Shown here: piece after piece, positions 34,573-58,669 of the stretch
Layout of the letters: each line of letters opens with the position of its first letter
How positions within the stretch are numbered: the first letter of the stretch is position 1
From: a virus
IMG/VR virus record: IMGVR_UViG_3300021961_000019
Length of the DNA: 64,000 nucleotides
Reading direction: 5' to 3' (one strand)
Notes under the pieces: generated by a model
Database searches by the model: none
What the model was told of the DNA's origin: nothing
Seen by the model: only the letters and a program-made list of their open reading frames with translations
Translations under genes and position numbers: made by a program

Positions 34573-34584
34573 AACAATATATAT

Positions 34585-34734: not shown

Positions 34735-34758
34735 TAGTTTTTTTATCTTTAAGGACAA

Positions 34759-34844: not shown

Positions 34845-34869
34845 AAATTGCTTCTATTATAATAACATA

Positions 34870-35121: not shown

Positions 35122-35191
35122 TCAACTCATCGATACAATATTTAGATACTTCAAAACCGCGTTCTGCGGCAAATGGAAATATTCAATTGTA

Positions 35192-35263
35192 TGGGCGATA
35201 CTGGATTCGAACCAGTGACTTACCACTTGTAAGGAGGCCACTCTACCGCTGAGTTAATCGCCC
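35192..35263 (-). tRNA. tRNA-Val(TAC)
   Basis: Loop CTTACAA; one U-U mismatch in the anticodon stem. Confidence 0.85.
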
Positions 35264-35275
35264 ACGTCAAGTTAT

Positions 35276-35551
35276 TTATGAAAGAGAAATAGCAAGATCT
35301 AAGGCACGTTTTGCTGAAGGAGCGATTGGATATCCAAGATGAAGACCATCTTTATCATATTGATACTCCTCAGATCTGTATAATTGAAATCCAAAAAGAT
35401 CATCTGTGGGAGATCCAACATCCCATACTGATACTGGTCTTACAAAATAAATCCCAGCATTCGCAACAACACGCCACCCAATTTCCACAAATCCCAGACC
35501 ACGAAGAGCACATTCTAATTTTAACGAATACCCTGCATCGTGCAAATTCAT
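35276..35551 (-). CDS. hypothetical protein
   Basis: 91 aa ORF between tRNAs. Confidence 0.6.
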   Translation of the reverse strand: MNLHDAGYSLKLECALRGLGFVEIGWRVVANAGIYFVRPVSVWDVGSPTDDLFGFQLYRSEEYQYDKDGLHLGYPIAPSAKRALDLAISLS

Positions 35552-35599
35552 AGGTTCGGTTTACCGTAACTATGAATTTATTTATTCCCCGGAAGGGGA

Positions 35600-35671
35600 A
35601 GCGGCTGATCGGATTCGAACCGACGACGTTCTGCTTGGAAGGCAGACATTCTACCACTGAATTACAACCGC
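35600..35671 (-). tRNA. tRNA-Gly(TCC)
   Basis: Loop CTTCCAA, U73. Confidence 0.92.
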
Positions 35672-35675
35672 AAAG

Positions 35676-35752
35676 TGGGGGCGGGAGTTGGATTTGAACC
35701 AACGTTCTGCGGCTTATGAGACCGCCGTGATACCTGACTTCACTATCCCGCT
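35676..35752 (-). tRNA. tRNA-Met(CAT), initiator-like; CCA encoded
   Basis: Unpaired A1:C72, GCGGGA acceptor, loop CTCATAA. Confidence 0.75.
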
Positions 35753-35754
35753 AT

Positions 35755-35970
35755 ATTTGGGTGGGTGGTGAGATTCTATCATACTCACAATCAGGAGGTC
35801 GCACTGATAGTAACGTTTCCTGACACTCTCGGACTCCTTGATAGTGGATTCGCATGTCTCTGGTCTCCCAGTCACATGGCGGGCATCACCCCTGTCCTAA
35901 TATACATTATCCCGTGCATGACCGCATAGGATTTTTCTGTCACACCCTTTGGAAATCCGTCGATCTCCAA
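35755..35970 (-). ncRNA. candidate structured ncRNA (about 215 nt) between tRNA-Ala and tRNA-Met
   Basis: At least six hairpins, one GNRA loop and loop-loop complementarity seen by eye; not covered by any credible ORF. Confidence 0.6.
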
Positions 35971-36041
35971 TGGAGAATAGGAGAATCGAACTCCTAATAA
36001 GTGCTTGCAAAGCACCCGTTATACCGTTTAACTAATTCCCC
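35971..36041 (-). tRNA. tRNA-Ala(TGC)
   Basis: Loop TTTGCAA, G3:U70. Confidence 0.92.
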
Positions 36042-36049
36042 ATGTTTTT

Positions 36050-36078
36050 ATTTTAAACGACAATCATGAGATTGTCAA
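36050..36078 (-). promoter_or_regulatory. sigma70-type promoter TTGACA-N17-TAAAAT upstream of tRNA-Ala
   Basis: Hexamers and 17 nt spacer; the -35 box abuts the tRNA-Thr 3' end. Confidence 0.75.
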
Positions 36079-36150
36079 GCCCCCGACAAGACTTGAACTT
36101 GCGACATCGGCTTTACAAAAGCCGCGCTCTACCAGCTGAGCTACAAGGGC
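36078..36150 (-). tRNA. tRNA-Thr(TGT)
   Basis: Loop TTTGTAA. Confidence 0.92.
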
Positions 36151-36205
36151 GAATGAGTCGGATATGATGATCCCGACTCTTATGGAAGAACCGAAGTCCA
36201 TCCAA

Positions 36206-36278
36206 CTGGGGTGGCAGGGATCGAACCTGCGACCTAGATGTTAACAGCATCCCGCTACTACCGCTGAGCTACACCCCA
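36206..36278 (-). tRNA. tRNA-Asn(GTT)
   Basis: Loop CTGTTAA, G73. Confidence 0.9.
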
Positions 36279-36285
36279 TTAATTT

Positions 36286-36357
36286 AACGTGGATTGGGAA
36301 TCGAACCCAAACTCCATGTGTGTTGTCCACCCGTCCTGACCACTAGACTACCCACGT
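36286..36357 (-). ncRNA. tRNA-like RNA / pseudo-tRNA with unpaired anticodon arm
   Basis: Paired acceptor (ACGTGGG/TCCACGT), D arm and T arm (TTGGG-TTCGATT-CCCAA); anticodon arm GGTGG-ACAACAC-ACATG cannot pair. Confidence 0.7.
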
Positions 36358-36421
36358 ATGATGGGTTAAGTGTGATATGCCTCATAAGGACATAACAGGG
36401 ACTTAACCTCTGTCACTTTAT

Positions 36422-36450
36422 ATAGTAACAAACTTTTGATGGGTTGTCAA
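36422..36450 (-). promoter_or_regulatory. sigma70-type promoter TTGACA-N17-TACTAT for the left tRNA sub-cluster
   Basis: Hexamers and 17 nt spacer; palindrome copy at 36461-36478 upstream. Confidence 0.8.
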
Positions 36451-36478
36451 CCCCCCATGTTCCAGTTTCCAAACTGTC

Positions 36479-36949
36479 CTATCCCATCACATATTCTATC
36501 CATTCAGTTACACCACTTTTCTGAACGTCCAGGTAGACCCTATTAAAAGGTGCTACAGGTTCTTTCTTCAAAGTCATGTTAGTTTCTGACAGAAGTTTGT
36601 TTCCCTTTTTCAAGTTACATTTAGTGCAACAGGCAACTAGGTTTTCCCATGTTTCCCGTCCACCTTTTGAACGTGGAATCACATGATCCAGTGTCAGATC
36701 CTTATCAGATCCACAATACTGGCACTCATGATCATCTCTCTTGTATATTAGAGCTCTTGTTGGATAAGATCCCCTACCCATATGAAAGGGAATATGTACA
36801 TAATTGACCAAACGTATTACTCGCTTGGTGATAAGCCTTGCCTTCTCTTTAAAGAGAAGAACTATAGCTCTCTTCCAATTAGTGAATTGCAATGGTTCAT
36901 ATGAACTGTTCAGAACCAATACTGTTGAATACGGTTCTACTAATTCCAT
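36479..36949 (-). CDS. HNH endonuclease
   Basis: RD...CQYCG...TLDHVIPRSKGG...WENLV..C..CN..KG. Confidence 0.92.
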   Translation of the reverse strand: MELVEPYSTVLVLNSSYEPLQFTNWKRAIVLLFKEKARLITKRVIRLVNYVHIPFHMGRGSYPTRALIYKRDDHECQYCGSDKDLTLDHVIPRSKGGRETWENLVACCTKCNLKKGNKLLSETNMTLKKEPVAPFNRVYLDVQKSGVTEWIEYVMG

Positions 36950-36980
36950 AGTCCTATCACACTGTAATGTTATTTAGAGG

Positions 36981-37053
36981 CGTCCCTTGAGAGATTCGAA
37001 CTCCCGACACATAGGTTCGTAGCCTACTGCTCTGTCCACTGAGCTAAAAGGAC
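36981..37053 (-). tRNA. tRNA-Arg(ACG)
   Basis: Loop CTACGAA. Confidence 0.92.
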
Positions 37054-37054
37054 T

Positions 37055-37129
37055 TGGCGAAGGGCCAGAGACTTGAACTCTGAACTTTGGTTTTGGAGAC
37101 CAAGATGTTACCAATTACACCAACCCAAC
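37055..37129 (-). tRNA. tRNA-Trp(CCA); CCA end encoded
   Basis: Loop CTCCAAA, G73; two U-U mismatches in the acceptor stem. Confidence 0.8.
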
Positions 37130-37130
37130 G

Positions 37131-37206
37131 TGGTATCCGTGAGAGGACTCGAACCTCCAACAAATAGATCCTTAGTCTATTGCCTCTTCCATTGGGCTAC
37201 ACGGAT
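37131..37206 (-). tRNA. tRNA-Leu(AAG), short variable loop; CCA encoded
   Basis: Loop CTAAGGA (G37), A73, 5-nt variable region. Confidence 0.85.
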
Positions 37207-37207
37207 T

Positions 37208-37281
37208 TGGTTCCAGAACTAGGACTCGAACCTAGATAAACGCCTTCAAAGGGCGGTGTCCTGCCATTAGACGATTCTGGA
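37208..37281 (-). tRNA. tRNA-Gln(TTG); CCA encoded
   Basis: Loop CTTTGAA. Confidence 0.9.
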
Positions 37282-37282
37282 T

Positions 37283-37360
37283 TGGAGTTCAGGGTGGGAT
37301 TCGAACCCACGGTAAAGAAGTTTTGCAGACTTCCGCATTCGACCACTCTGCCACCTGAAC
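37283..37360 (-). tRNA. tRNA-Cys(GCA); CCA encoded
   Basis: Loop CTGCAAA, U73. Confidence 0.92.
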
Positions 37361-37392
37361 ATTGAACTATCTGGACTTTCCGGATAGTTGAG

Positions 37393-37464
37393 AGCCCTTA
37401 GTGAGAATCAAACTCACGACCGCATTCTTACCAAGAATGTGTTCTATCACTGAACTATAAGGGC
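37393..37464 (-). tRNA. tRNA-Thr(GGT)
   Basis: Loop TTGGTAA; D-loop AGTGATA and T-loop TTTGATT. Confidence 0.85.
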
Positions 37465-37466
37465 GG

Positions 37467-37540
37467 GGTGTAGGACGGGACTTGAACCCGCATAAACCAG
37501 ATTCACAATCTGGCGCATTGGCCAATTATGCTACCTACAC
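37467..37540 (-). tRNA. tRNA-His(GTG)
   Basis: Loop TTGTGAA, C73; genomic base at -1 is T. Confidence 0.88.
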
Positions 37541-37541
37541 A

Positions 37542-37615
37542 TGGCAGTAGATGGATTTGAACCACCGACCATAGGAATATGAGACCCGTGCTCTACCAAA
37601 CTGAGCTATACTGCC
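37542..37615 (-). tRNA. tRNA-Met(CAT), elongator-like, weak anticodon stem
   Basis: GGC acceptor, A73, loop CTCATAT; stem CGGGT/TCCTA has 2 mismatches. Confidence 0.65.
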
Positions 37616-37617
37616 AA

Positions 37618-37708
37618 CGGAAGTGGTTGGATTCGAACCAACGGTGCCTATTACTAGACACGGAATCTTAGCAGGATTCTGCGATAAGCCTGACTCTGCC
37701 ACACTTCC
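37618..37708 (-). tRNA. tRNA-Ser(GCT)
   Basis: Loop CTGCTAA, long variable arm, G73. Confidence 0.92.
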
Positions 37709-37762
37709 TCAATGTTGCCTTGAATTATCCTAAAGTTGTTTTGGGTTGCTTCAAGGCAACAA

Positions 37763-37834
37763 TGGAACCGACAAGATTTGAACTTGTGACCGCTCGGTTA
37801 TCAGCCGAGTGCTCTACCGCTGAGCTACGGTTCC
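37763..37834 (-). tRNA. tRNA-Ile(GAT)
   Basis: Loop CTGATAA. Confidence 0.93.
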
Positions 37835-37837
37835 AAG

Positions 37838-37911
37838 AGGGAACAGTCGGACTTGAACCGACAACACCATGATCTTCAGTCATGTGCTCTACCAATTGGA
37901 GCTATGTTCCC
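37838..37911 (-). tRNA. tRNA-Phe(GAA)
   Basis: Loop CTGAAGA. Confidence 0.9.
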
Positions 37912-37913
37912 AA

Positions 37914-37985
37914 TAGTCCTAACGGGATTCGAACCCGTGTTCTCACCTTGAAAGGGTGATGACCTAACCGCTAGTCGATAGGACC
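37914..37985 (-). tRNA. tRNA-Glu(TTC)
   Basis: Loop CTTTCAA. Confidence 0.92.
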
Positions 37986-37988
37986 AGG

Positions 37989-38060
37989 CGACCCATAGGG
38001 GATTCGAACCCCTGATACCTCTTAGACAGAGAGGCGTGATCACCACTTCACTAATGGGCC
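37989..38060 (-). tRNA. tRNA-Asp(GTC)
   Basis: Loop CTGTCTA, G73. Confidence 0.92.
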
Positions 38061-38135
38061 TGGAGCGGACTACGGGATTTGAACCCGTGACATCAACCTT
38101 GGCAAGGTTGCGTTCTACCACTGAACTAAATCCGC
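38061..38135 (-). tRNA. tRNA-Gly(GCC); CCA encoded
   Basis: Loop TTGCCAA, U73. Confidence 0.93.
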
Positions 38136-38139
38136 AAGG

Positions 38140-38230
38140 TGGGAGAGGAGGGAATTGAACCCCCGATGGTTCCGATGTAACGGTTTTACAGACCGCAGCC
38201 ACACATATTGCCAACAGTAGCCACTCTCCC
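38140..38230 (-). tRNA. tRNA-Tyr(GTA)
   Basis: Loop CTGTAAA, long variable region, enlarged D-loop. Confidence 0.85.
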
Positions 38231-38267
38231 GAACAGTTTATGTTTAACGACCGAACTGCGGCGGTGC

Positions 38268-38343
38268 AGGGGGCATCTGGGATTCGAACCCAGGACTAAC
38301 CGATTAAGAGTCGGATACTCTGACCTGACTGAGTTAATGCCCC
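38268..38343 (-). tRNA. tRNA-Lys(CTT)
   Basis: Loop CTCTTAA. Confidence 0.9.
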
Positions 38344-38346
38344 TTA

Positions 38347-38419
38347 TGGGTCTGGTGGGACTCGAACCCACGATCCACCGGTTAAAAGCCGGGTGCGCTC
38401 GCCGCTTAGCTACAGACCC
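38347..38419 (-). tRNA. tRNA-Lys(TTT)
   Basis: Loop CTTTTAA. Confidence 0.9.
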
Positions 38420-38468
38420 AATAAAGGTTTAAATTTTCAAGGTTCAATCAAAAACTATCACAGGCAAC

Positions 38469-38501
38469 AAAAAAGGGGAGGAAACCTTAGTTTCTCTCCC
38501 C
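38469..38501 (-). terminator. rho-independent terminator
   Basis: GGGGAG-A-GAAAC-TAAG-GTTTC-CTCCCC-TTTTTT on the minus strand. Confidence 0.75.
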
Positions 38502-38526
38502 TGTTCTTGCTTTTATGGATTACATG

Positions 38527-38634
38527 TTACATGTGTTTATCCATACCCGCAAACAGGGGAGCTCCCTCAATATGCTGCCAGGTGCGGCCGCAATCGAGAT
38601 TGCTAAACTTAATTGTGAGCATTGGATAAGACAT
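38527..38634 (-). CDS. 35-aa peptide (MSYPMLTIKFSNLDCGRTWQHIEGAPLFAGMDKHM)
   Basis: Manually translated; flanked by TATAAATA (38655-38662) and a terminator. Confidence 0.55.
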   Translation of the reverse strand: MSYPMLTIKFSNLDCGRTWQHIEGAPLFAGMDKHM

Positions 38635-38719
38635 TGTTTTCGACCTAAGTGTTTTATTTATAGGGTTTTAATTTTTGCGTTACAAAAATTAACAGGAGCA
38701 ATCAATCAAGATTGCTAAG

Positions 38720-38793
38720 CACCCCAGGTAGGATTCGAACCTACGACTCACGCTTTAGAAGAGCGTTACTCTATTCCACTGAGTTACTGAGGC
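38720..38793 (-). tRNA. tRNA-Arg(TCT)
   Basis: Loop CTTCTAA. Confidence 0.93.
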
Positions 38794-43981: not shown

Positions 43982-46288
43982 TTAGATTTTGCAACTTTCA
44001 CACTCCTCTTCAGAGTCCTCAAGAATAGAATTGAGCAGACAATCAAGTTCAACTGTCCTAGAAATATTCTCCTCAACTACATCACTCTTCAGATCATAAG
44101 TGTTCTGATAGTAAGAGGTTTTCCATCCATACTTATAAGTTGTCAGAAGATCTGTTGCCATCACCGAGACCGGGACTTCGTTGTTTGAATAGTTTTCTGG
44201 ATTGTAACTCCAGTTTCCGGAGATTGCTTGATCGAAGAACTTTTGCAATACTGCAACAACGTTGATGTACCCAGTATTGTTAGGCATATCCCAAAGAAGA
44301 GTGTAATTGTTCTTAAGGGATCCATACTGAGGAACAATCTGTTTAAGGGGGCCCTTCTTGCTCTTCTTAATGGACAAGTAATCTCTAGGTGGTTCAATTC
44401 CGTTTGTTGCGTTTGACACAACGGAACTGCTCTCAGAAGGCATTTGTGCGGACAACGTGCTATGTCGCAATCCATATGTTTGAATGTCGGATCGTAATGT
44501 TTCCCAATCATGTTGATAAGCAATCGAAGAAATGTCGTCTACCTCTTTTTTGTAAGTATCAATTGGAAGAATGCCATCCGCATACTTGGTTCTACCGAAG
44601 GATGAACAATGACCCTTCTCCTGTGCCAACTGATTAGATGCTTTCAAGAGGTAATACTGGAATGATTCTGCAAGACCGTGAGCAGCGTCCCATGCCTCCT
44701 GAGAGTCGTATTTGAACCCCAGTCTGGCAAGATAATGGGCAAGACCGATGAACCCCACTCCAAGCGATCTACGTGCCTTTGTGGCGTTCTCTGCTGCCTT
44801 GACGGGATAGTGTTGATAATCGATCAGCTCATCCAAAGAACGGACAGAAAGATCGCAAAGTTCTTCCAACTCATCATCAGACTTTACCTTGCCAACATTT
44901 ACTGCAGACAGAATGCACAGGGCGATCTCACCCACAATATCATCAATATGTTGGAGGGGATCTGTTGGGAGGGTAATCTCTTGGCAGAGATTGCTCATAT
45001 TTACCTTGTCCTTAAATGATGAGTGAGAATTGCAATGGTCAATATTCATGATATAAATTCGACCAGTTTCAGCCCTCTCCTTCAGTAGATCAAGGATTAG
45101 ATCTTGTGCCTTTAAAGATTTCTTGGGGATCTCTTCGCAGGTCTCATAATACTCATAAAGTTCATCAAATCTATCAGTTCCAAATGATTCATACAGACCA
45201 GGAACATCATGCGGACTAAAGAGAGTAATGTTGCCACCAGAAATAAATCTCTCATAGAAGATTTTGCTGAGTTGAATTGAATAGTCCAACTTACGAACAC
45301 GATTATCTTCAGTTCCCTTGTTGTTCTTAAGAACAAGAATGTCTTCTATTTCTTGGTGCCAGATTGGGAAGTGGACTGTCGCGGATCCACCTCGTATGCC
45401 ATTTTGCGTGCAACATCTGACAGTTGCTTCAAACTTCTTGAGAAATGGTACAACACCTGTGTGTTGAACTTCTCCCCCTCTGATTTTACTGTTGATGCCA
45501 CGGATGCGACCAGCGTTGATGCCGATCCCCGCCCTCTGTGCAACGTATCTGCCAATAGCCATATCAGAGCTAAAGATAGAATCGAGGGTGTCATCAACAT
45601 CAACAAGAACACAACTAGCAAATTGTCTAATTGGTGTTCTAACCCCTGCCATGATTGGGGTTGGGATGTTGATTTTGTGTTTGGAGATTGCGTCATAATA
45701 TCGTCTCACATAGGACATTCGGGTTTCTTTTGGATACTCTGCAAAGATTGTCAGAGCAATCATCATGTACATGAATTGTGGAGTTTCAAATACTCTACCA
45801 CTGCTTCTATCTTGCACGAGGTACTTATCAACGACCTGGCGTAAACCTGCATAAGTGAATAAGAAGTCACGATTATGATCAATATACGAATCAGCTCGCT
45901 CAATCTCTTCTTTAGAGTATTTTGTGAAAATTTCATGATCGTATAGTTGCTGCTGAACACATTGGACAATATGCACCTCCAGAGAAGGAAGTTCTTTCAT
46001 TCTTCCATATAGAGACTTTCTCAGAGAAAATAGAAGAAGTCTTGCCGCAACAAATTGATAATTTGGATGCTCCAGATCAATCAGATCACTAGCAGAGCGA
46101 ATCAAAATCTCTTGAATCTCAGCGGTTGTGATTCCATCATAAAATTGAATACCTGAAGTCATTTCAACCTGACTTGCAGACACTCCAGAAAGACCTTGAC
46201 AGGCGGCATCCACCATCAGATGCATCTTTTCAAGATTGATGGGTTCGATAGAACCATTCCTTTTAAGTACCTTTAATCCGTTGCTCAT
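43982..46288 (-). CDS. nrdA: ribonucleotide reductase class Ia, alpha subunit
   Basis: ATP cone, PTPIMAG, ASCVL, SNLCQEI, KTSYY; no intein. Confidence 0.97.
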   Translation of the reverse strand: MSNGLKVLKRNGSIEPINLEKMHLMVDAACQGLSGVSASQVEMTSGIQFYDGITTAEIQEILIRSASDLIDLEHPNYQFVAARLLLFSLRKSLYGRMKELPSLEVHIVQCVQQQLYDHEIFTKYSKEEIERADSYIDHNRDFLFTYAGLRQVVDKYLVQDRSSGRVFETPQFMYMMIALTIFAEYPKETRMSYVRRYYDAISKHKINIPTPIMAGVRTPIRQFASCVLVDVDDTLDSIFSSDMAIGRYVAQRAGIGINAGRIRGINSKIRGGEVQHTGVVPFLKKFEATVRCCTQNGIRGGSATVHFPIWHQEIEDILVLKNNKGTEDNRVRKLDYSIQLSKIFYERFISGGNITLFSPHDVPGLYESFGTDRFDELYEYYETCEEIPKKSLKAQDLILDLLKERAETGRIYIMNIDHCNSHSSFKDKVNMSNLCQEITLPTDPLQHIDDIVGEIALCILSAVNVGKVKSDDELEELCDLSVRSLDELIDYQHYPVKAAENATKARRSLGVGFIGLAHYLARLGFKYDSQEAWDAAHGLAESFQYYLLKASNQLAQEKGHCSSFGRTKYADGILPIDTYKKEVDDISSIAYQHDWETLRSDIQTYGLRHSTLSAQMPSESSSVVSNATNGIEPPRDYLSIKKSKKGPLKQIVPQYGSLKNNYTLLWDMPNNTGYINVVAVLQKFFDQAISGNWSYNPENYSNNEVPVSVMATDLLTTYKYGWKTSYYQNTYDLKSDVVEENISRTVELDCLLNSILEDSEEECESCKI

Positions 46289-47262
46289 ATCCGTTTCCAA
46301 TGTGTGAACTTTACTCTTGCCTCTAAACCCTGATATACGTTTGATTCTACAATATCTTGAACATTATGTCCAGCAAGAACCATGTCATTGATGTCTTTCT
46401 CAACAATAGATGATGGCCAGATCACGACCTTATCTCCTCTGTCGATTGCTTTGGAGATTCTTGCGGTGATGTCTCTACTGCGCGGTTCGTTATCAAAAAC
46501 ATAAATATAATCGCTCCAATCAAACGACCCAAGATCGATATCGGCCCCGCACATAGCAACGCTATTTTTAATAAAGGTCGAGTCGAACGGTCCTTCGATG
46601 ATGTAGATGGGAGAGCGAACATCCACCTGATCGAATCCATAAATTTTTGGCGCATCGTCTTCAAGCATTATAGTAATGTATTTAACCTTGGAAGACTTTT
46701 CTAAAGATCTTCCTTGCAACCCGATTAGTCGGTCTTTATATATTAAAGGAATAACGATCCTTGGTTCGTCATATTCCACGTTGCTAAAGACGTGATTGAG
46801 TGTATTAACCCATGCTTTGAACTTATCGGTGTAATAAAATTTATCTGGATTTAGTTTTCTACTTTCCAGAAATGTTTTGGATTGATAATTTGTAGACGCC
46901 TTAGGCAAATCCAAAACAACCTTCTTCTTAAAGACAGGTTTTTCAAATTCAAAATCCGGCTTCTCTGCAGTAAAATTTCTCCCGGTATGTCCTTCTTTGA
47001 ATTTCTCAAAGACATACTCCTTATGCATCGTAATGTCTAACTGCTTAAGAAAATTGTTGAAAGAAATATTCAACCCGCAGTTATGGCATTTATAGTTTGT
47101 ATTATTTTTTACTTGGTAGAGATATCCTCTTGCTTTATTCTTATTCTTCTGAGAATCGCCGCACAAGGGGCATCTAAAGTTAAAAAGGTCATTCTTCACC
47201 CTTTTAAACTTTTGAAGTCTTGAAGAAACAAGATTGATGTATTTCACATCAATAAAATCCAT
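46285..47262 (-). CDS. gp61: DNA primase (T4 gp61 homolog)
   Basis: RCPLCGDS...CHNC zinc finger; IIEGPFDS; DNEPR; KDINDM. Confidence 0.95.
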   Translation of the reverse strand: MDFIDVKYINLVSSRLQKFKRVKNDLFNFRCPLCGDSQKNKNKARGYLYQVKNNTNYKCHNCGLNISFNNFLKQLDITMHKEYVFEKFKEGHTGRNFTAEKPDFEFEKPVFKKKVVLDLPKASTNYQSKTFLESRKLNPDKFYYTDKFKAWVNTLNHVFSNVEYDEPRIVIPLIYKDRLIGLQGRSLEKSSKVKYITIMLEDDAPKIYGFDQVDVRSPIYIIEGPFDSTFIKNSVAMCGADIDLGSFDWSDYIYVFDNEPRSRDITARISKAIDRGDKVVIWPSSIVEKDINDMVLAGHNVQDIVESNVYQGLEARVKFTHWKRI

Positions 47263-47455: not shown

Positions 47456-47950
47456 TTAGATGTTGTCACTCACATTTTTATGCACAAGACTCTGATAAGG
47501 TCTTTCAACAGTTGTCCTTTCCATCCTTGCCTTTGGAATGGTATTTGTCCACACTCCAGATGCCAACTGAGACAGAGTAGCGGCAACTGTTACAAGAACT
47601 GCTCCAATTCCAATAACCATCCACTTAACTCTTGTGACATCATCAATCTTTTGTTCAAGATCATCCATGTCAGGAAGTTTATCCAACCTACTCTCCAATT
47701 CGTCAATCTTCTCTAGACAGAATTGAACTGATTCATCGTTTCTGTTACTAACATTATCAATAAGTGACTTCATGCTGTCACTATGCTTGTAAAACTGCTC
47801 AATTTTTTCATTCTGAACTGCCAGCATTTTCAGAATGTTTGAGTTTACATCGTTAATCTTATTGATCGCCCTCTCCAACTTATCCACAACCGTGACAAAA
47901 TCCACCAATCTCTGCTCCAAGATGGCTATTTTTATCTCTTCGTTTGGCAT
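47456..47950 (-). CDS. coiled-coil protein with C-terminal TM helix
   Basis: Heptad pattern followed by WMVIGIGAVLV. Confidence 0.65.
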   Translation of the reverse strand: MPNEEIKIAILEQRLVDFVTVVDKLERAINKINDVNSNILKMLAVQNEKIEQFYKHSDSMKSLIDNVSNRNDESVQFCLEKIDELESRLDKLPDMDDLEQKIDDVTRVKWMVIGIGAVLVTVAATLSQLASGVWTNTIPKARMERTTVERPYQSLVHKNVSDNI

Positions 47951-49691: not shown

Positions 49692-49964
49692 CTATTTATC
49701 CAAATTAGACTCGTATTTTTTAGTCTTTGGATTCCATTTCCTAACTTCACCCTTTCTCAAGGGTGGAGTGTCATCATGCCTCGTTTTCCAATGTTTACCA
49801 AATTTCATTCTCATCTTTCTTTCCAAATTCTCTCTCTCCGACTCATCATCTTTTTCACGTTCCCTAGAGGACAAATATCCTGCAAAAGGTTCACTAGTTT
49901 CATACCTCATATTTCTTCGGAAATAATCAATTACGAAGTCAATTTTCTTGTCGAAATTGTCCAT
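49692..49964 (-). CDS. hypothetical protein
   Basis: 90 aa, highly charged. Confidence 0.6.
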   Translation of the reverse strand: MDNFDKKIDFVIDYFRRNMRYETSEPFAGYLSSREREKDDESERENLERKMRMKFGKHWKTRHDDTPPLRKGEVRKWNPKTKKYESNLDK

Positions 49965-52753
49965 CAGTCCCTCGCAGAATAATACTTCTCTCTTGCCTTT
50001 GCTTCTCCCCTCTCTTTGGAAGTATGACCATGCTTGATCACTCTATCAACCTGACGATTAGCCAGTCTACGTTGAGTCTCTGAAGGAGTTTCCTTCTGAC
50101 CTCTCACCTTTGGTTCTTGGCGGGATCCAGGAAACTTCGTCTCATGCTCCTTCTCTGCCCTGTGCTTGAGGTTGGTGATGCCCGCCTTAAGACGTTGCTC
50201 ACGACCCTTTCTTGCCGCTGCCAGCGACTTCATAGCGGCATCTCTACGTGCCTGCTTCGCGGCATCAGGTGCTGCCCCATGCCTATCTGCTGCTGTAGAC
50301 TCGCCAAGTTCTCCAAGTGCTTTTTGCTTACGAATCTTCTTAGGATTCTTGGTCTTGTCTGCAGAGTAGTTATTATCATCCTCATTATCAGGATCTACAG
50401 CACTACGATGTCTGGTGCGTCTTTCTTCATCATCCATATTTGCACGACTTCTCTTTGCTTCATCGGGAGAATATTTTCTACCGCTGTTGTACCATTCTTT
50501 ACCTACATGACCTCTCTTTTCAGCATCAGCAGATGCCTCTCTACGCTTATTCTTCTGACGATTTGCTTTGAAGTCTTTCATGGTCATGCCTTCTTCAAGT
50601 TCATCTTCAAACTCAACTTCCTCTGTATTCATAGGAAGTTTGTTTTGCTGTTGCAGTCTCAACTTCTGCTTCTCAAGTTGCTGCTTCTTCATTTGCAACC
50701 TCTTCATATTCTGAAGTTGCTGCTTCCTTAGATTTTCCTGTCGCTTGTCAGCACTAGTTTGAGTTGCTCTTACATCATCATCAGCGGTTGTTTCTTCCTG
50801 ATCAACAATTGCAGACTCTTTCACTTCAGGCAGTTCACTACGCTTAGTCTTAGCATAGTCACGAAGTTGCTTAGTGGTCATGGTTTTGGCCAGTTTGGCA
50901 ACTGTCACAGAAGGTGCTTCCATTTCACCCGTCTTGGTTGCATATGCCATACCCATCAGTTTTTGCTGCTTAGCAGAAACTGCTTCTTCCTTCATAGCAT
51001 CAGCAACTCTTTGTGCTGCCTTTCTAATACCACGCTTCAGAGAAGTCTTTGCTCTCTGAACCTTTGGTTCTGCAGCAACCTTCAATTCTCTTGCCTTATT
51101 ATATGCCTTCACGGCAAGTTTTCCAAGAATTTCTTTTGCTCTTGACTTGACACTTCTCTTTTTGGGGCCCTCTGTATCATGACCATAAGTTACTGTTGCC
51201 TCAATAAGTGCTTCGCTTGCAAGGTCAAGATCATATCCTTCAAGAACCAATTCTTCCAGAATTTGCTCAATATCAAACTCCTCTCTATTAAGTTGCTTTT
51301 TCTCAGCAGGAGTTAAAGCACCTCTCTGTGCTCCTCTTGCTGCTTGCTTTGACTTCACCTTAGGATCATCAGACTTGTGACCATATCCATGGAGACCAGG
51401 GGAAGAAGAAGTGGTCTTACGGAAATCACCTCTTTGTGCTCTGGCAAGATTTTGTCTCTGCTTTTCTTTATTAGCATCACCAAAGGTTGGTCTGTCTGCT
51501 AGTTTGGTTGCTCTATCAGCAGCCTCACCGCCACCAGTTGACTTAGCAATCTTATTACGAATTGCGGTCTCATCATGACCACGTTTCGCCATCGCGGTTG
51601 CTTCATCAATTTCTGAGACCAGAGGATCTGGTGTAATCAAATCAACAAATTCAACATAGTCATTTCCATTTGCATCCTGAATAGTGACAGACTCTTTGGG
51701 AACACAATTCGGGACCTTTTTACCACCCTTCTTCTTCATTCCTACTTGCTGATATCCATCCCAACAAGGATCATCACTCACTTCTTTTGCCTCAAGAACC
51801 ACTCCACCAATCTCAGAAATTGCGGCAGTCACTTCCTCAGTCTTGAGGTTTGGGTTGAGGATGACTTTATTGTTTACCTTCTTTTCCTTAATTTCATTTT
51901 CACCCTCATCTTCCTTTGGAGCAACTACTTCACGAAGATCATTTCTCCAGTTTGAGAAGGCTTCCTTTCTTACTTTCTTTTCCTTCGCTGGGTTTGGTTT
52001 TACTGCCTTTCCACCGGGAGGATTATTCTTACCAGAAACACCCCTATTTGCTTCTGCTTCGTCATGATCAAAGTCAGGATCCTCCATAGGATCATACCAC
52101 CCTTTACCCTCACTTACACCATGAGACTTATCTTTAGCAATCGCAGCAGAACGCTTTTGTCTACGATTCAAAAGATACTTATCTGTCTTATCATGGTCGC
52201 CATCATTATCAATATCCTTATCCTCTTTGCCAACGGGATCAAGACCCTTACCAGACTTTACTTTTGCAGTTTGTTCACCACGCGATGCTTCTGCATCATA
52301 TGCCTTTCCATAGTGGGTCATTTCGACCGACTTAATATTTGGATTTGCACGAAGTTGACTAATCTTTTCGCGGGTTGCTCTTCTAACGTAACTTCTACCA
52401 GTTTCCTTATCAGTAACACGAATCTGATATTTCTCAACTGGACCTTCCTTCTCTTCCTTAACTGGAGAGGGGTTTACCAGACCCAACTTTTCCTTAACAG
52501 CAAGTTTCTCAGGACCGGTCATAGTTGTATGACCCATATACTGACCATATGCCTGATCTACCTTAACACCTTCTCTCTTAGAGCGATATCTAATATCATA
52601 TACCGCTTGACGAACACGTTTAGCGGATGATTCTTCATCATCCTTACCCTTCTCAACATGCTTGCCAGAATCAGATCTTGACTTACCTAACTTAGGTTCA
52701 AAGACCTCTTTCATATAAACATCAGAGATCGCATTTAGAGGATTGACGGTCAT
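49964..52753 (-). CDS. large charged protein, probable internal head/virion protein
   Basis: 929 aa, K/E/R/D-rich; modules DPCWDGY.QVGMKKK, AVSAKQQKLMG, DKDIDNDGD; ATAAATA at 52785-52791. Confidence 0.7.
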   Translation of the reverse strand: MTVNPLNAISDVYMKEVFEPKLGKSRSDSGKHVEKGKDDEESSAKRVRQAVYDIRYRSKREGVKVDQAYGQYMGHTTMTGPEKLAVKEKLGLVNPSPVKEEKEGPVEKYQIRVTDKETGRSYVRRATREKISQLRANPNIKSVEMTHYGKAYDAEASRGEQTAKVKSGKGLDPVGKEDKDIDNDGDHDKTDKYLLNRRQKRSAAIAKDKSHGVSEGKGWYDPMEDPDFDHDEAEANRGVSGKNNPPGGKAVKPNPAKEKKVRKEAFSNWRNDLREVVAPKEDEGENEIKEKKVNNKVILNPNLKTEEVTAAISEIGGVVLEAKEVSDDPCWDGYQQVGMKKKGGKKVPNCVPKESVTIQDANGNDYVEFVDLITPDPLVSEIDEATAMAKRGHDETAIRNKIAKSTGGGEAADRATKLADRPTFGDANKEKQRQNLARAQRGDFRKTTSSSPGLHGYGHKSDDPKVKSKQAARGAQRGALTPAEKKQLNREEFDIEQILEELVLEGYDLDLASEALIEATVTYGHDTEGPKKRSVKSRAKEILGKLAVKAYNKARELKVAAEPKVQRAKTSLKRGIRKAAQRVADAMKEEAVSAKQQKLMGMAYATKTGEMEAPSVTVAKLAKTMTTKQLRDYAKTKRSELPEVKESAIVDQEETTADDDVRATQTSADKRQENLRKQQLQNMKRLQMKKQQLEKQKLRLQQQNKLPMNTEEVEFEDELEEGMTMKDFKANRQKNKRREASADAEKRGHVGKEWYNSGRKYSPDEAKRSRANMDDEERRTRHRSAVDPDNEDDNNYSADKTKNPKKIRKQKALGELGESTAADRHGAAPDAAKQARRDAAMKSLAAARKGREQRLKAGITNLKHRAEKEHETKFPGSRQEPKVRGQKETPSETQRRLANRQVDRVIKHGHTSKERGEAKAREKYYSARD

Positions 52754-52767: not shown

Positions 52768-53973
52768 CTATTTCTTCTTATACTTATTTATGAAATTTTT
52801 AATACTCTTGGTTTGAGTCATACGCATCAAATATTTTAGAAGAGAATCAGTTCCAACCAATCTTTTATCAGATGAGACTCCAGATTGATCGGTCCATTCA
52901 ACAACATCACGAATCCAAGGTTTGAATAGAATATTATCCTCAGTCACACAAATCAAATAATTTGCACCTCTGCGAATGATCTTACCAACAAATCCAGTAT
53001 TAAGGTTCTCAACAACATCCCCAACATTAAAAATATTTCCCCTGATATATTCATCTCTCAATCCATTGGAATCATATTTTGGAGCAATTTCCCACAAACT
53101 ATACGACTCAGAAACCTTCATACTCTTTCTAAGAGTATTATAAAGTTGTTTTGTAGTTTCGTCATCCAAAGTGGAAGGAACTCCCTTTCGGAAAGTTGCA
53201 AAGTCTCCCTCTGCTGCTGCCTTCCTCAATTTAGATGCTGACATACCACTCACATCATCAGCATCCGGATCACGTTCTCCAGCAGAAACTACCTGAATAT
53301 CTTTGAAGTCATACAACTTACCATTATATTCTGTAGACAATTTCTCAAACTCTGATTGGCGATCACTTCCCACAACAATATTAACTGAAGAATAACCGTC
53401 AGCATGTGCTTGCTTGAGAACATCAAAAATGGTCTTTGACTTCACATCGTTCACAATTCTCTCACCATGCTTTGGATACATTTTACGCATTACTGCAATT
53501 TTAGTATCCGGATCTAATGGATTTTTCTTTGAATCACTAGATCTAGACGGATAGATTTTATAGTCCCCCTTACCAGCAACGGTTGCAACTCTATCCAACA
53601 ACTTTTCATGTCCGGTAGTTGGGGGGTTAAATCTACCGAAAGCAATAGTGAGTGTTCCCTTATCTTCAACCTCTTCTTCACCACCCTCAGGTTGCTGAGA
53701 TTGTGCCTGAGGTTGCGGTGCTTGTGGGGCAGATTGTTGAACTTGAGTAGCGGCGATTTGTTGATTCGCAGATGTTCTTTCCTGAGGAGGATCCTGTCCA
53801 GGTCTCTGATTTTTATTATAAAACTTTAATTTACCACCCTCAGTTTTTGCTACAAACTCTCCGTCTTTATCATACCACCCACCATGACCATCTCCAGTCA
53901 GTCCAAGCCGTCTTGCTTGCATAACTGCCTGTGATTTGCCTGCTTCGGAAAGAAATCGGGAAAAACTTTTCAT
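52768..53973 (-). CDS. HIGH-superfamily nucleotidylyltransferase (cytidyltransferase-like)
   Basis: FGRFNPPTTGH, VVGSDR, SASKLR; TATAAATA at 53973-53980 and 53994-54001. Confidence 0.85.
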   Translation of the reverse strand: MKSFSRFLSEAGKSQAVMQARRLGLTGDGHGGWYDKDGEFVAKTEGGKLKFYNKNQRPGQDPPQERTSANQQIAATQVQQSAPQAPQPQAQSQQPEGGEEEVEDKGTLTIAFGRFNPPTTGHEKLLDRVATVAGKGDYKIYPSRSSDSKKNPLDPDTKIAVMRKMYPKHGERIVNDVKSKTIFDVLKQAHADGYSSVNIVVGSDRQSEFEKLSTEYNGKLYDFKDIQVVSAGERDPDADDVSGMSASKLRKAAAEGDFATFRKGVPSTLDDETTKQLYNTLRKSMKVSESYSLWEIAPKYDSNGLRDEYIRGNIFNVGDVVENLNTGFVGKIIRRGANYLICVTEDNILFKPWIRDVVEWTDQSGVSSDKRLVGTDSLLKYLMRMTQTKSIKNFINKYKKK

Positions 53974-54003
53974 ATTTATAATTCTTGCATTTTTATTTAT
54001 ATT

Positions 54004-55197
54004 TCAATCAGATGACCAATTTTTATCTGCGGTAAAGTTTGCTCGCGAAAATTCAAGTCTATCAACAAGTTTTAAGGCAGATCCAGATTTGATTGCAACA
54101 AATCCCTCTGGCGCAGTAACTTTGTATCCATCACCAGTTCTCAGGAATGTTCCAAAGTCCTTCACCATTTCAAGTTTACGAATTACAATATTTTTTGCCT
54201 TCTGCAAATTAATATAAGAAGCGACTGTAAAATATACAGATCTGCTATTCTTGGTCAAGAAGGTTAATCCATCTGCCTTAATCTTTGCATATTTATCTCT
54301 AGCAGCAGGAGTTTTTTTACTACCAATCTCCTTATCCAAAAGTGAAGAATAGTAAGTCTTGAATCCTTCAGAAACTTTTTTCACATTAGTGATAGGGTTG
54401 CCAGACCGAATGTATGTATTGAAATATTGCTTAAACAAAGTGGATAGTAAGAATTTACCATCACCAGTCTCACCCAAAATATCTAAAAATGCAGATGCTT
54501 GCTTCAAAGATCCAGTCGCCATATTTACGGCAGACTTATATTTTTGATGCTCAGTTGGTGAAAAATTAGCAGCGCCGGAAGCATCACTAAATGATGCTGT
54601 TGCAGCATAAACATCAGGACAATCTTGGAATTTAGAAATGTCCACACCAAAGGATGCATTCATACTTTCCAAAGATGATCCACTATATTCAGTATGAAAA
54701 ACAATTCCAACTTTTGCCCTTGAGATTTTAGATCCAAGTTTCGAATCAACCGGGACAGTATATACAATAGTATTTGGTTGGAAACTATGAACTCGTTCTC
54801 CAGCAATTGTCTTAATACTCACATCATCCGTGAAAAGAAGGTCTCCCTGAATTACATTTGTAATTCCAAGTTTGGGAAGATGCTCTAGACATGCCTTTAG
54901 TTTAGATGCTAGTTGCCCAGAATAATTTTGATCTATATCGCCGGAAGTAAACATCAACTTCGGATTTGTTTTTGCAAAAACAGATTTTGTTCCAACAAAA
55001 AAGCATCCTGTGACAGGTTCAATTCCACAGATTACGGCAGGTGCTCCATCCCACTTTGTTGTGATGCGGATAGAAGATCTTGGTTCCGTGAGCATAGTTC
55101 CAAGCTCATTTAAAAATGTAATTGCATTTTTTCCGCCAGCAGAACCATGATTTAAAATATCATCTTCAAGGTGTTCAAGGTGAGTGTTTTTTGCCAT
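54004..55197 (-). CDS. conserved cyanophage protein with ligase-like nucleotidyltransferase motifs
   Basis: TKWDG, IQGDLL, EGFVA, LKLVD; family recalled as DUF6267-like. Confidence 0.65.
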   Translation of the reverse strand: MAKNTHLEHLEDDILNHGSAGGKNAITFLNELGTMLTEPRSSIRITTKWDGAPAVICGIEPVTGCFFVGTKSVFAKTNPKLMFTSGDIDQNYSGQLASKLKACLEHLPKLGITNVIQGDLLFTDDVSIKTIAGERVHSFQPNTIVYTVPVDSKLGSKISRAKVGIVFHTEYSGSSLESMNASFGVDISKFQDCPDVYAATASFSDASGAANFSPTEHQKYKSAVNMATGSLKQASAFLDILGETGDGKFLLSTLFKQYFNTYIRSGNPITNVKKVSEGFKTYYSSLLDKEIGSKKTPAARDKYAKIKADGLTFLTKNSRSVYFTVASYINLQKAKNIVIRKLEMVKDFGTFLRTGDGYKVTAPEGFVAIKSGSALKLVDRLEFSRANFTADKNWSSD

Positions 55198-56501
55198 CAG
55201 TTAATAAGTCTCCTAATATTTGCAAACTGTCCTTTCAATAGGTGCTTTAGTTCCGGTGCGATTGTGGCAAAGAATTGTGGTTGAGAATGGAAATCCCCCT
55301 TGTATCGAAGTTCCACACAAAGAAGTCTAAATTCTCCCTTGAAAACATCAAAGAAAACCTTGGCAGCATCTGCCTTTTCCGTCTTGTCTGTATCCAGTTT
55401 AATATGGGCAGACTCCTTTGACAGGGCTGCTAGGACACATTGAACACTGTCTATCCCGATGGCATCGCCAGATCCCATACTGATATTTCCTTTTTTACAT
55501 TCACCAACACCAGTGACCAACACAAATTCAAATTTGTTCTGAACTAGATCCTCCAGTGTATCCTGCAACCTACTCTTAAGAACAAGATTGATTAGAGAAT
55601 CTGCGAATAAATCCGCATGTTCATCCATAATGTCAAGGAAACCTTTATATAAAGGATTGACTGTATTACCAATGCTCTGCAACTTCTTATTCACATAGTC
55701 TCGCATATCATTATGCGCTTTGGACTCGGAAGCAACTAATGATGGATCATCGCTAATTGCACGAACATCCTTAATATTAATCAGGAACACATATTCAGTT
55801 TTATTTGCCTTTCTTCTTGGAACCTTCGCATTCCACAATTGCTCATCAGTTGCAGTATTCCAATTATCCACACGATCAATCTTACCAATCAATTTTAATG
55901 GACCATCTTCCTTTGCTTCGCGGATCACACCTGCAAAGAATTTTTGTCTATGCGCCAACAATTCAGTCTTCACAGTATTAAACTTAGTGCCCTCCATCAG
56001 GGTGTCAAACGCCTTGTTAATAATTGTTGGATCTTGTGCTGTCGATTTTGGTTTCTTCTTCAGCGAAATGCCAACATAATGATCAGTTCCGTATCTAAAA
56101 ATAACATCGGATGAATTATAATCTGCCATTCCAAAAGCATTAATCTTAAACTTCTGAACCTCTGTTGGCCAACGAGTTCCAGTTAAAAATACTTTGGTTG
56201 GACTTGCTGCTGAAATAGTATCATAAGCATCTGTCTTTAGATATGAGCGAATTGCTTTCATCGCTGACATACCAACAAGTAGATCAGTATATACTTGATC
56301 AGTATTGCTGCCATCGAGTCTCATCTTCTTGAGGAAATCGTTCTTAACGTTTCCAATTCCCTCAACATTAGTTCCTTCAACATTTGCAATCACATCATTA
56401 AGTAATGCTTGCAGTTTGTTTGTGTCTCTGGCAGCTGCGTTTATTTCGGTGTCACTAATGAAGGCAACTCCAGCCAACATTCCTTCAGATGGTTCAGCCA
56501 T
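55197..56501 (-). CDS. putative PD-(D/E)xK nuclease-fold protein
   Basis: SSDVIF...GISLKK; stop overlaps the next start (TGATG). Confidence 0.5.
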   Translation of the reverse strand: MAEPSEGMLAGVAFISDTEINAAARDTNKLQALLNDVIANVEGTNVEGIGNVKNDFLKKMRLDGSNTDQVYTDLLVGMSAMKAIRSYLKTDAYDTISAASPTKVFLTGTRWPTEVQKFKINAFGMADYNSSDVIFRYGTDHYVGISLKKKPKSTAQDPTIINKAFDTLMEGTKFNTVKTELLAHRQKFFAGVIREAKEDGPLKLIGKIDRVDNWNTATDEQLWNAKVPRRKANKTEYVFLINIKDVRAISDDPSLVASESKAHNDMRDYVNKKLQSIGNTVNPLYKGFLDIMDEHADLFADSLINLVLKSRLQDTLEDLVQNKFEFVLVTGVGECKKGNISMGSGDAIGIDSVQCVLAALSKESAHIKLDTDKTEKADAAKVFFDVFKGEFRLLCVELRYKGDFHSQPQFFATIAPELKHLLKGQFANIRRLIN

Positions 56502-57280: not shown

Positions 57281-58669
57281 CTAGAATTTAAAAGAGTCAA
57301 ATTTTTTGTTTTGGAATTTTTCCTCAGTCCTATCATTATAGTCAATATCATGTCCGCTGTCAACTAAATCATTCTGAGCGGTCTGCTCAACATCATACAG
57401 TCTCATCTTTGCTCTGTCAATACCAACCACAAACCTCTTGTAGACTGTCGGATCATTATAACGATTCTTAAGTTGCTTTACAAGGATTTGTCCGAGTTGC
57501 TCCAGATCTTCAGTAGAAATAAGGGCAAACATAAGATCAGCAGTAGCAGGGAGGCCAAAGGATTCACTAGTATCAGTAAGTTCGACATCGTTGCTACTAT
57601 AACCAGAACGAGTGGTCTGCGTGGCAGAAACGATAGGGACGTTTGCTTCAACAGCCAATCCTCTAAGCTCTTCAGCAATTGCTTTGATATAGCTATATGA
57701 ATTGACAGAAAGGTTCGTCCTATACCTAGAGGAAGAACATATATTAAGGTAATCAACGAAAATAATATCAGGACAAAATGACTTTTTAAGATGTAAATCA
57801 TTTAACAACGACCTAAAGTGCCCAGAATGTGCAGAAGCAGTTGGATATTCCTTAATTATAAGAGTACCTTGCGTCTTCTTTGAAAGTTTATTGACTTTTG
57901 TTTCAAACATATCTTTTGGCAGTTTCACAATATCCTGAATCGGAACGTTCAAAAGATTTGCATCGATTCTTTCTGCGATTTTTTCTTCAGACATCTCCAT
58001 CGTAATATACAAAACATTTTTGCCTTGAAGCAAAACTGCTGCTGCCATATGACACATGAATAAAGATTTGCCCACACCAGTTCCTGCGAGGGCAATATTT
58101 AAAGTCTTTCTTGGAAGACCACCTTTAGTAATCTTGTTGAAGTAATCCAGATCAAATGGAATACGATCTTCCTTTCTATGATAACTCTCATATCTTGCTT
58201 CAAAGTCATTCAAATAATCATGACCGATATGATTGTCAAAAGAAACTGCTAATGCATCTTGTAAGATGGAAGGAATGGAATCCCTAGATCTTTTTTCATC
58301 CTTGCCATCAGCGATTGAAATTGCATCAATCAACGACAAGTAAATAGCACGATCTCTACACCACTTTTCGGTAGTGTTTACCAACCAAGAATATTCAGAA
58401 ACACTCTCATCCAAAGATTGAATGAGACCGCGAATATCTTTGAATTCAGAATCATTAATATCCTTCCTATTCTCAACTTCAATAGAAAGGACCTCCTTCG
58501 TTGCAGTTTTATTATACTCCTCAATAAAGGATCGTATTTCTTCAAATACAATTCTCTGATTCTTATCCTCAAAATATTCCGCCTTAATAAAGGGTATTAC
58601 CTTTCGGCAATACTCCTCATTGTATACTAAGTTCTTAAGGATTAGAAGTTCAATTGTTTCCATTATCAA
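57281..58669 (-). CDS. gp41: replicative DNA helicase (T4 gp41 homolog)
   Basis: LAGTGVGKS, ITMEMSE, KEYPT, IFVDYLNIC, SATQTTR, SESFGLPATAD. Confidence 0.97.
   Translation of the reverse strand: MIMETIELLILKNLVYNEEYCRKVIPFIKAEYFEDKNQRIVFEEIRSFIEEYNKTATKEVLSIEVENRKDINDSEFKDIRGLIQSLDESVSEYSWLVNTTEKWCRDRAIYLSLIDAISIADGKDEKRSRDSIPSILQDALAVSFDNHIGHDYLNDFEARYESYHRKEDRIPFDLDYFNKITKGGLPRKTLNIALAGTGVGKSLFMCHMAAAVLLQGKNVLYITMEMSEEKIAERIDANLLNVPIQDIVKLPKDMFETKVNKLSKKTQGTLIIKEYPTASAHSGHFRSLLNDLHLKKSFCPDIIFVDYLNICSSSRYRTNLSVNSYSYIKAIAEELRGLAVEANVPIVSATQTTRSGYSSNDVELTDTSESFGLPATADLMFALISTEDLEQLGQILVKQLKNRYNDPTVYKRFVVGIDRAKMRLYDVEQTAQNDLVDSGHDIDYNDRTEEKFQNKKFDSFKF

Follow-up and report, generated by a model that had tools for sequence, protein, structure and literature searches.

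In the window, i.e. the 64,000 nucleotides of the IMG/VR record IMGVR_UViG_3300021961_000019 that were analysed, the open reading frame (ORF) at positions 54004 to 55197 encodes a protein of the family DUF6267, for which we propose the function of a polynucleotide ligase. Judged from its conserved motifs and from its predicted structure, this protein may be an active, very divergent enzyme, which would join strands by means of adenosine monophosphate (AMP) bound to Lys 48 and which would serve break repair or counter-defence. We assign to this reading a probability of about 0.48, i.e. close to one half. DUF6267 is most aptly seen as a new branch, of unusual architecture, within a known superfamily.

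54004..55197, minus strand: DUF6267 ORF, 397 aa, ATG start, predicted ligase-type covalent nucleotidyltransferase fold

The window is DNA of a T4-like cyanomyovirus-type phage, and its 397-aa ORF is a real, full-length member of DUF6267. The Pfam profile PF19782 (DUF6267) matches residues 4-392 on profile positions 1-376 at E 1.8e-132, with a score of 442.7 bits (cut-off 27); phrog_455 ('unknown function') matches at E 1.8e-124. An identical protein is present on a 196-kb contig; the nearest isolate is Synechococcus phage S-8S53 with 61% identity. The family is large: a database clustered at 90% contains at least 8000 relatives (8000 of the 8000 scored candidates), and at 50% identity there are 2551 cluster representatives. 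It occurs in 466 phage records, in cyanomyoviruses nearly throughout, and the remaining records are of Pelagibacter, Methylophilales, Stenotrophomonas, Vibrio and Pseudoalteromonas phages. Among these 466 records, annotation was listed for 70, and all 70 carry the label 'hypothetical protein', which agrees with the statement in an earlier, sequence-only reading that the family is annotated only as hypothetical or as a DUF. Our literature search found no paper on DUF6267 and none on 'cytitidyltransferase'; papers on cyanophages and RNA ligase were judged by title and abstract, and none of them treats the family.

Conserved motifs and predicted fold

The protein contains, in this order from its N-terminus, the following motifs and one inserted domain:

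55162..55182, minus strand: N-terminal HLEHLED motif; H6, E8, H9, E11 and D12 conserved
55042..55062, minus strand: motif I TTKWDGA, residues 46-52; K48, D50 and G51 invariant
54982..54999, minus strand: motif Ia-like FVGTKS, residues 67-72; F67 and K71 invariant
54832..54855, minus strand: motif III-like VIQGDLLF, residues 115-122; D119 invariant
54754..54777, minus strand: motif IIIa-like PNTIVYTV, residues 141-148; Y146 invariant
54172..54558, minus strand: inserted basic five-helix domain, residues 214-342, between the half with motifs I-IIIa and the hairpin with motifs IV-V
54091..54111, minus strand: motif IV PEGFVAI, residues 363-369; E364 and G365 invariant
54058..54078, minus strand: motif V-like ALKLVDR, residues 374-380; K376 invariant, V378 at the place of the second Lys

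Conservation was determined from an alignment of 105 homologues with 35-72% identity, to which three remote cyanophage versions of about 295 aa (about 31% identity) were added. The residues K48, D50, G51, K71, D119, Y146, E364, G365 and K376 are invariant in 105/105 homologues, and all of them are kept in the three remote versions. At position 378, Val or Ile is found in 104/105 homologues and Lys in none; R380 is present in 104/105. The canonical order is kept by motifs III, IIIa, IV and V, the deviations being an Asp for Glu in motif III and V378 for the second Lys of motif V. The additional HLEHxED motif, which is part of an N-terminal helix, lies in most homologues just past the predicted cleavage site of a leader described below. 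The sequence-only reading had claimed an ordered set of nucleotidyltransferase motifs, and each motif that it quoted was located at its place and in the order given; the lysine of KWDG, on whose conservation that claim depended, is K48, which varies neither in the 105 homologues nor in the three remote ones. Because the key residues are invariant across the 105 homologues, the motif set is more than chance, and K48 is the predicted AMP-accepting lysine.

An AlphaFold2 model of the DUF6267 protein, computed with a homologue alignment, reached a mean predicted local distance difference test score (pLDDT) of 94 and a predicted template modelling score (pTM) of 0.91. By means of VIA-align, it was compared exhaustively with 48,161 representative chains and then subjected to a second look. 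Ligases alone occupied the top 17 rows in the exhaustive comparison and the top 34 rows in the second look, with 166-194 residues aligned. The best match was the RNA ligase of Naegleria gruberi (NgrRnl, Rnl5) with a Z-score of 8.8 over 184 aa and a root mean square deviation of 3.8, followed by REL1 (Z 8.1 over 194 aa), T4 Rnl2 (Z 7.9 over 176 aa), Trl1 (Z 7.5; 7.0-7.5 over both looks), T4 Rnl1 (Z 6.6 in the exhaustive search, 7.5 in the second look) and archaeal Rnl3 (Z 6.9). DNA ligases gave Z 5.5-6.4; capping enzymes (family PF01331) came further down the list, below RNA and DNA ligases, with Z about 5 (5.1), and the adenylation domain of S. aureus LigA (family PF01653) had Z 4.5. As this list of ligases is uniform and the motif pattern agrees with it, the only reasonable reading of the model is that the DUF6267 protein shares the covalent nucleotidyltransferase (ligase) fold. 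In shape, it is most likely nearest to the RNA ligases Rnl5, Rnl2, REL1 and Rnl1, and the preference of the sequence-only reading for an RNA ligase or capping-type enzyme over a DNA ligase is supported, as regards RNA ligases, by the Z-scores (7-8.8 versus 5.5-6.4). BFVD contains weak matches to viral entries named 'RNA ligase'.

The same reading had stated that an OB domain is missing, and the model indeed has none; two short helices (residues 380-396) end it after motif V. What it has in addition is the inserted helical domain, which was not part of the sequence-only reading. It comprises about 130 aa here and is shorter in the cyanophage versions of about 295 aa. The insert has a net charge of +13 and the remainder of the protein one of -5; the family medians are +7 and +1, respectively.

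The aligned ranges of the structural comparison place model residues 2-389 on residues 52-252 of Rnl1, so that K48 would correspond to K99 and K376 to K240, and model residue 385 on residue 233 of Rnl2, so that K376 would correspond to K225. A local, ungapped match by hidden Markov model (HMM) sets the family consensus 'apEGfVaidksgnavKL' on 'nIEGYVAVMKDGSHFKI' of Rnl1 (residues 225-241) and suggests the pairs E364 and E227, K376 and K240, and V378 and K242. The latter pair, together with the aligned ranges, fits the earlier claim that the second Lys of motif V is replaced by Val.

The best structural matches to the core of DUF6267, namely the nick-sealing RNA ligases Rnl5, T4 Rnl2 and T. brucei REL1 (PF09414), share with it the equal order of motifs I, III, IIIa, IV and V and the lack of a DNA-ligase-type OB domain. 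DUF6267 differs from them by the absence of detectable profile similarity and of a PF09414 match, even at E 10. Moreover, its helical domain is inserted into the core before motif IV and not appended at an end, and it has a Val for the second Lys of motif V, an Asp in motif III and the extra HLEHxED motif. T4 Rnl1, which is also phage-encoded, resembles DUF6267 in the context of motif I (ILTKEDGS versus ITTKWDGA) and has the motif IV-V spacing of the family consensus (EGYVA...K versus EGFVA...K), the window copy being one residue shorter. The Rnl1/Trl1 family profile, PF09511 (RNA_lig_T4_1), gave a weak match in 4 of the 105 members (best E 6e-4, sub-threshold) and none in the window protein. 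Motif V reads KIK in Rnl1 and KLV in DUF6267; the helical tRNA-specificity domain of Rnl1 is C-terminal, unlike the internal insert of DUF6267; and Rnl1 works with Pnkp, whereas the constant partner of DUF6267 is a nucleotidyltransferase of the HIGH superfamily.

From motifs and fold we infer the following course of catalysis, with adenosine triphosphate (ATP) as the cofactor and with RNA or DNA as the substrate. Lys 48 of KWDG would attack ATP, which would yield the enzyme-AMP adduct, while D119 (motif III), Y146 (IIIa), E364-G365 (IV) and K376 (V) would hold nucleotide and metal. The AMP would then be transferred to a 5'-phosphate end, which would finally be joined to a 3'-OH. The inserted basic helical bundle may clamp the nucleic acid and would thus stand in place of the OB or C-terminal domain of other ligases.

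Partner genes, leaders and expression

DUF6267 lies in the gene order gp43, UvsX, gp41, MazG, small ORF, 434-aa ORF, DUF6267, 'cytidylyltransferase', 929-aa charged protein, primase, NrdA/NrdB, and a matching order was found in S-8S53, S-CAM1, S-RIM8 and S-SSM5. The direct neighbours are:

55197..56501, minus strand: upstream, coupled 434-aa protein (phrog_3060), HinP1I/MspI-like PD-(D/E)xK nuclease fold
52768..53973, minus strand: HIGH-superfamily nucleotidyltransferase (cytidylyltransferase-like), PF01467 match, FGRFNPPTxGH and MSASK(M/L)R
49964..52753, minus strand: extremely charged (K/E/R/D-rich) 929-aa protein, directly after the HIGH nucleotidyltransferase, syntenic in relatives

The HIGH nucleotidyltransferase is a recurrent partner, a link that extends the sequence-only reading. 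In a survey of 80 IMG/VR loci, 79 of which could be analysed, its gene was found at most four genes downstream of DUF6267 in most loci extending far enough. Furthermore, fusions of DUF6267 and CTP_transf_like domains exist in many phages and in either order; an example is the 591-aa protein of S-PM2. The nucleotidyltransferase itself is sometimes fused to a polynucleotide kinase (PNK)-type P-loop kinase, a Pol-beta nucleotidyltransferase, an adenylate kinase or a RimK-type ATP-grasp domain. It also contains a Q/P-rich linker and a conserved C-terminal domain of about 100 aa, which is a stand-alone small protein in other loci. Its matches to NadR and to archaeal nicotinamide mononucleotide adenylyltransferase (NMNAT) are weak (E 0.3-0.9), and its identity as an NMNAT is tentative. 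As a side observation, the IMG/VR loci L030, L042, L060, L057 and L048 encode, downstream of DUF6267, large leader-bearing fusion proteins with P-loop (PNK/zeta-type) kinase, Pol-beta nucleotidyltransferase, HIGH nucleotidyltransferase, DUF5824, or RimK ATP-grasp plus Zn-protease domains.

An NMNAT-like partner, recurrently fused or adjacent, serves no purpose in a ligase that simply depends on ATP, and this gives some weight to the idea that DUF6267 performs lysyl-nucleotide chemistry without joining strands. It might then cap or adenylylate the 5'-ends of phage DNA or RNA, or consume in its reaction a dinucleotide made by the partner, such as nicotinamide adenine dinucleotide (NAD+). The replacement of the second lysine of motif V by V378 and the extra invariant HLEHxED motif at the N-terminus would be compatible with such a reaction, as would the fold, which capping enzymes share (Z about 5), and a packaged enzyme lacking ATP could act once if it were pre-charged. 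However, capping enzymes and the NAD+-dependent LigA score clearly below the RNA ligases, the protein has no OB domain and apparently no Ia domain, the partner itself is assigned to NMNAT on weak matches, and no precedent was found in the literature searched. We therefore regard this explanation as distinctly unlikely.

The start of the DUF6267 ORF and the stop of the 434-aa ORF that precedes it overlap by a single base (TGATG), which suggests translational coupling of the two. The model of the 434-aa protein (pLDDT 85.5) matched HinP1I with Z 7.6 (215 aa) and MspI with Z 7.2; the next match, at Z 4.9, is also a PD-(D/E)xK nuclease. The conserved residues D132...S146-x-K148 (x = L) constitute a D...SxK variant of the catalytic motif. 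The proteins at the -1 position of other DUF6267 loci had no Pfam match; one further protein cluster, and no other, was linked to the nuclease-like family (hhalign probability 94%). Apart from its link to DUF6267, the nuclease-fold protein could relate to an undescribed route of host-DNA degradation in cyanomyoviruses, a route mentioned in PMC2984593. The 929-aa protein gave only patchy matches to unknown PHROGs, and parts of its sequence are found again in genes farther downstream at related loci; its place in the module is uncertain.

A further feature beyond the sequence-only reading is the N-terminus of most relatives. An extension precedes the conserved KN(T/L)HLEH in 87 of the 105 homologues, and in 83/105 it ends in (L/I/V/M/F/T)xE, a typical sequence being MKSFKQFLxE. 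These leaders (type MKxFxxFLxE) closely resemble MKTYQEFIAE/A of the T4 internal proteins IPII and IPIII, as read from the T4 genome (the slash marks the cleavage site), and a leader of the IPII/IPIII type targets internal proteins to the prohead (PMC3012670). The HIGH nucleotidyltransferase of the window opens with such an internal-protein-like leader, MKSFSRFLSE/AGK, and in Melnitz and HTVC008M the upstream protein is likewise leader-bearing. In the virion proteome of cyanophage S-CREM2 (PMC10665884), the partner cytidylyltransferase was detected, which its authors call a frequent finding. As judged from its sequence, the window copy of DUF6267 has lost the capsid leader. Besides the leader in 83/105 homologues and in the HIGH nucleotidyltransferase of the window, the late-type promoter boxes listed below are a trait in common with T4 IPI, IPII and IPIII; the differences are that the T4 internal proteins are small, basic and not ligase-fold enzymes, and that the DUF6267 protein of the window is without their leader.

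The resemblance of the leader-bearing homologues to T4 internal proteins, which are mostly non-enzymatic (PMC3012670), would also suit a catalytically dead protein of ligase fold, e.g. an internal head protein that binds nucleic acid; the incomplete motif V and the basic helical domain could be read in the same way. This is highly improbable in our view, as all residues expected for nucleotidyl transfer are invariant down to about 30% identity while surface positions vary freely. Such a combination of invariant catalytic-type residues and a variable surface is typical of enzymes.

With respect to expression, four elements were identified:

57335-57363: perfect sigma-70 consensus promoter (TTGACA-17-TATAAT) within the end of gp41, driving MazG and a 97-aa ORF
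56562-56544, minus strand: strong, GC-rich intrinsic terminator, closing the early MazG unit
56530-56523, minus strand: cyanophage late-type box AATAAATA, 22 nt before the nuclease-like gene
53973..54001, minus strand: pair of late promoter boxes of T4 type (TATAAATA), located after the stop of DUF6267 and before the start of the HIGH nucleotidyltransferase

The sequence NATAAATA is the reported late promoter of cyanophages (PMC2984593). DUF6267 would thus be made late, and in most related phages it would be loaded into the capsid via its leader of the T4 internal-protein type and delivered together with the DNA. It may act jointly with the HIGH-type adenylyltransferase-like enzyme, whether fused to it or encoded next to it, and with the protein of restriction-endonuclease fold.

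Ligase content of related phages and weighing of the ligase reading

T4-like cyanophages and pelagiphages belong to the ocean's most abundant viruses. They have been described since 2005 as lacking DNA ligase and the RNA repair enzymes of T4, and DUF6267 is a candidate for the missing ligase. Ligase absence was assessed in related genomes: seven of them, of which two are 100% complete, have neither a PF01068 nor a PF01653 match, and five of the seven have no PF09414 match. The corresponding PF09511 search also gave no match, but its control was silent too. Because the fold is that of ligases and the catalytic residues are strictly conserved, DUF6267 probably represents a strand-joining enzyme of a new kind, encoded by phages in which no other ligase is apparent.

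This ligase content raises the question whether DUF6267 is the functional equivalent of T4 gp30, which would seal Okazaki fragments as well as nicks in concatemers before or during packaging. In favour of this interpretation, cyanomyoviruses are reported to be without gp30 homologues (PMC2984593, PMC1079782), in agreement with the above searches. Homologues of T4 gp30 are found in 2644 phage records, and there is no cyanophage among the ten commonest names. The gene of DUF6267 lies within the replication block (gp43 - UvsX - gp41 - MazG - ... - primase - NrdAB), and it is next to a protein with the fold of a DNA restriction endonuclease. With gp30 and other ATP-dependent DNA ligases (PF01068) DUF6267 has in common the superfamily fold (Z 5.5-6.4) and, in gp30-less phages, the position in the replication module. 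In contrast to gp30, it has no OB domain, no motif VI, no N-terminal DNA-binding domain and no match to PF01068 (nor to PF01653), and its model fits RNA ligases better than DNA ligases. Late-type promoter boxes behind a terminator, instead of an early promoter, and a capsid-targeting leader in most homologues would be odd for a replisome enzyme; moreover, the host LigA could cover replication. An eighth related genome, that of Stenotrophomonas phage DLP6, encodes DUF6267 together with an ATP-dependent DNA ligase of PF01068; therefore, the two are not simple substitutes for each other, and the case for a plain gp30 replacement is weakened. We consider equivalence to gp30 unlikely, and the proposed role of the DUF6267 ligase would be that of a break-repair or counter-defence enzyme rather than that of an Okazaki ligase of the replisome.

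As to the choice between DNA and RNA, 30 tRNA genes form an array in the window (31982-38793), which is entirely on the minus strand and accounts for nearly every amino acid. These genes, as well as the PNK-type kinases and Pol-beta nucleotidyltransferases of related loci, fit a role in healing and sealing RNA, which is not to be taken as proof.

A number of findings weigh against an active ligase. First, comparisons of sequences and profiles by HMM and HH methods with T4 Rnl1, Rnl2, gp30 and all PDB sequences fail. A phmmer search and the 105-sequence profile retrieved from all PDB sequences no ligase and only low-complexity, Lys-rich matches; hhalign comparisons of the family profile with T4 Rnl2, T4 gp30 and a 35-sequence Rnl2 profile gave probabilities below 3% with misaligned motifs (below 1% for T4 Rnl2, both single and as a profile); and T4 Rnl1 found among 270 DUF6267 proteins only spurious local matches with phmmer. 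An ESM Atlas feature search yielded a single weak lead, a viral cluster containing PF09414, with a score of 0.75, which is under the useful range. Second, the ligase fold expected by the sequence-only reading was recovered by AlphaFold2 and VIA-align, which put ligases on top, but not by Foldseek, which found nothing in the PDB at E <= 0.001 for either predicted model and listed ligases in insignificant rows only. In addition, Z-scores of 7-9 exceed only moderately the background against which VIA-align warns. Third, the role of K48 as the nucleophile rests on the motif pattern and on range arithmetic. Fourth, motif III has an Asp and not a Glu, and a Val stands at the second motif V lysine (KIK in T4 Rnl1, KCK in T4 Rnl2), a residue which is essential in T4 RNA ligases. 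Fifth, a ligation reaction offers no evident task for the HIGH nucleotidyltransferase. Finally, with regard to packaging, the DUF6267 protein of the window and its closest clade are without a leader (they start with MAKNT; here MAKNTHLEH, with no in-frame start upstream), and the presumed DUF6267 orthologue of S-CREM2, the ORF just upstream of the cytidylyltransferase (ORF154), is not among the virion proteins in the listed part of the table (PMC10665884).

A bolder version of the ligase reading, which we put forward tentatively and hold to be rather doubtful as a whole, combines all these elements. DUF6267 would be a new family of ligases, distinguished by a helical clamp inside the core and by KLV in motif V, and it would belong to a late-made break-repair kit together with the HIGH adenylyltransferase and the nuclease-fold protein. 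The leader would direct this kit into the head in most of the T4-like marine phages, and it would be injected, the ligase possibly being pre-charged with AMP in order to act before ATP or NAD+ of the cell is available; in cyanomyoviruses, DUF6267 would be the only ligase encoded. Such an injected enzyme set (ligase-like, HIGH nucleotidyltransferase and nuclease-like, with a kinase or Pol-beta nucleotidyltransferase in relatives) may counter host nucleases. If true, enzymologists would take an interest in a ligase that has its clamp domain inside and only one lysine in motif V, and it might be useful as a reagent. The placement in the ligase superfamily offers a concrete and cheap biochemical test for a family that is present in 466 phage records and in thousands of metagenomic relatives.

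Other features of the window

Several observations concern other parts of the window. A gp61-type primase appears to be distributed over two ORFs, 46285-47262 and 47456-47950, which are about 190 nt apart and match successive parts of phrog_451 (3-135 and 131-461); an intron or an inserted element could be the cause, or the split could be genuine. An HNH endonuclease ORF (36479-36949) lies inside the tRNA array. In the region from 12 to 30 kb, many ORFs are without a match to PHROGs. Auxiliary metabolic genes typical of cyanophages are represented by a nucleotide-sugar epimerase and by a 6-phosphogluconate-dehydrogenase-like gene (29143-30201 and 33016-34119).

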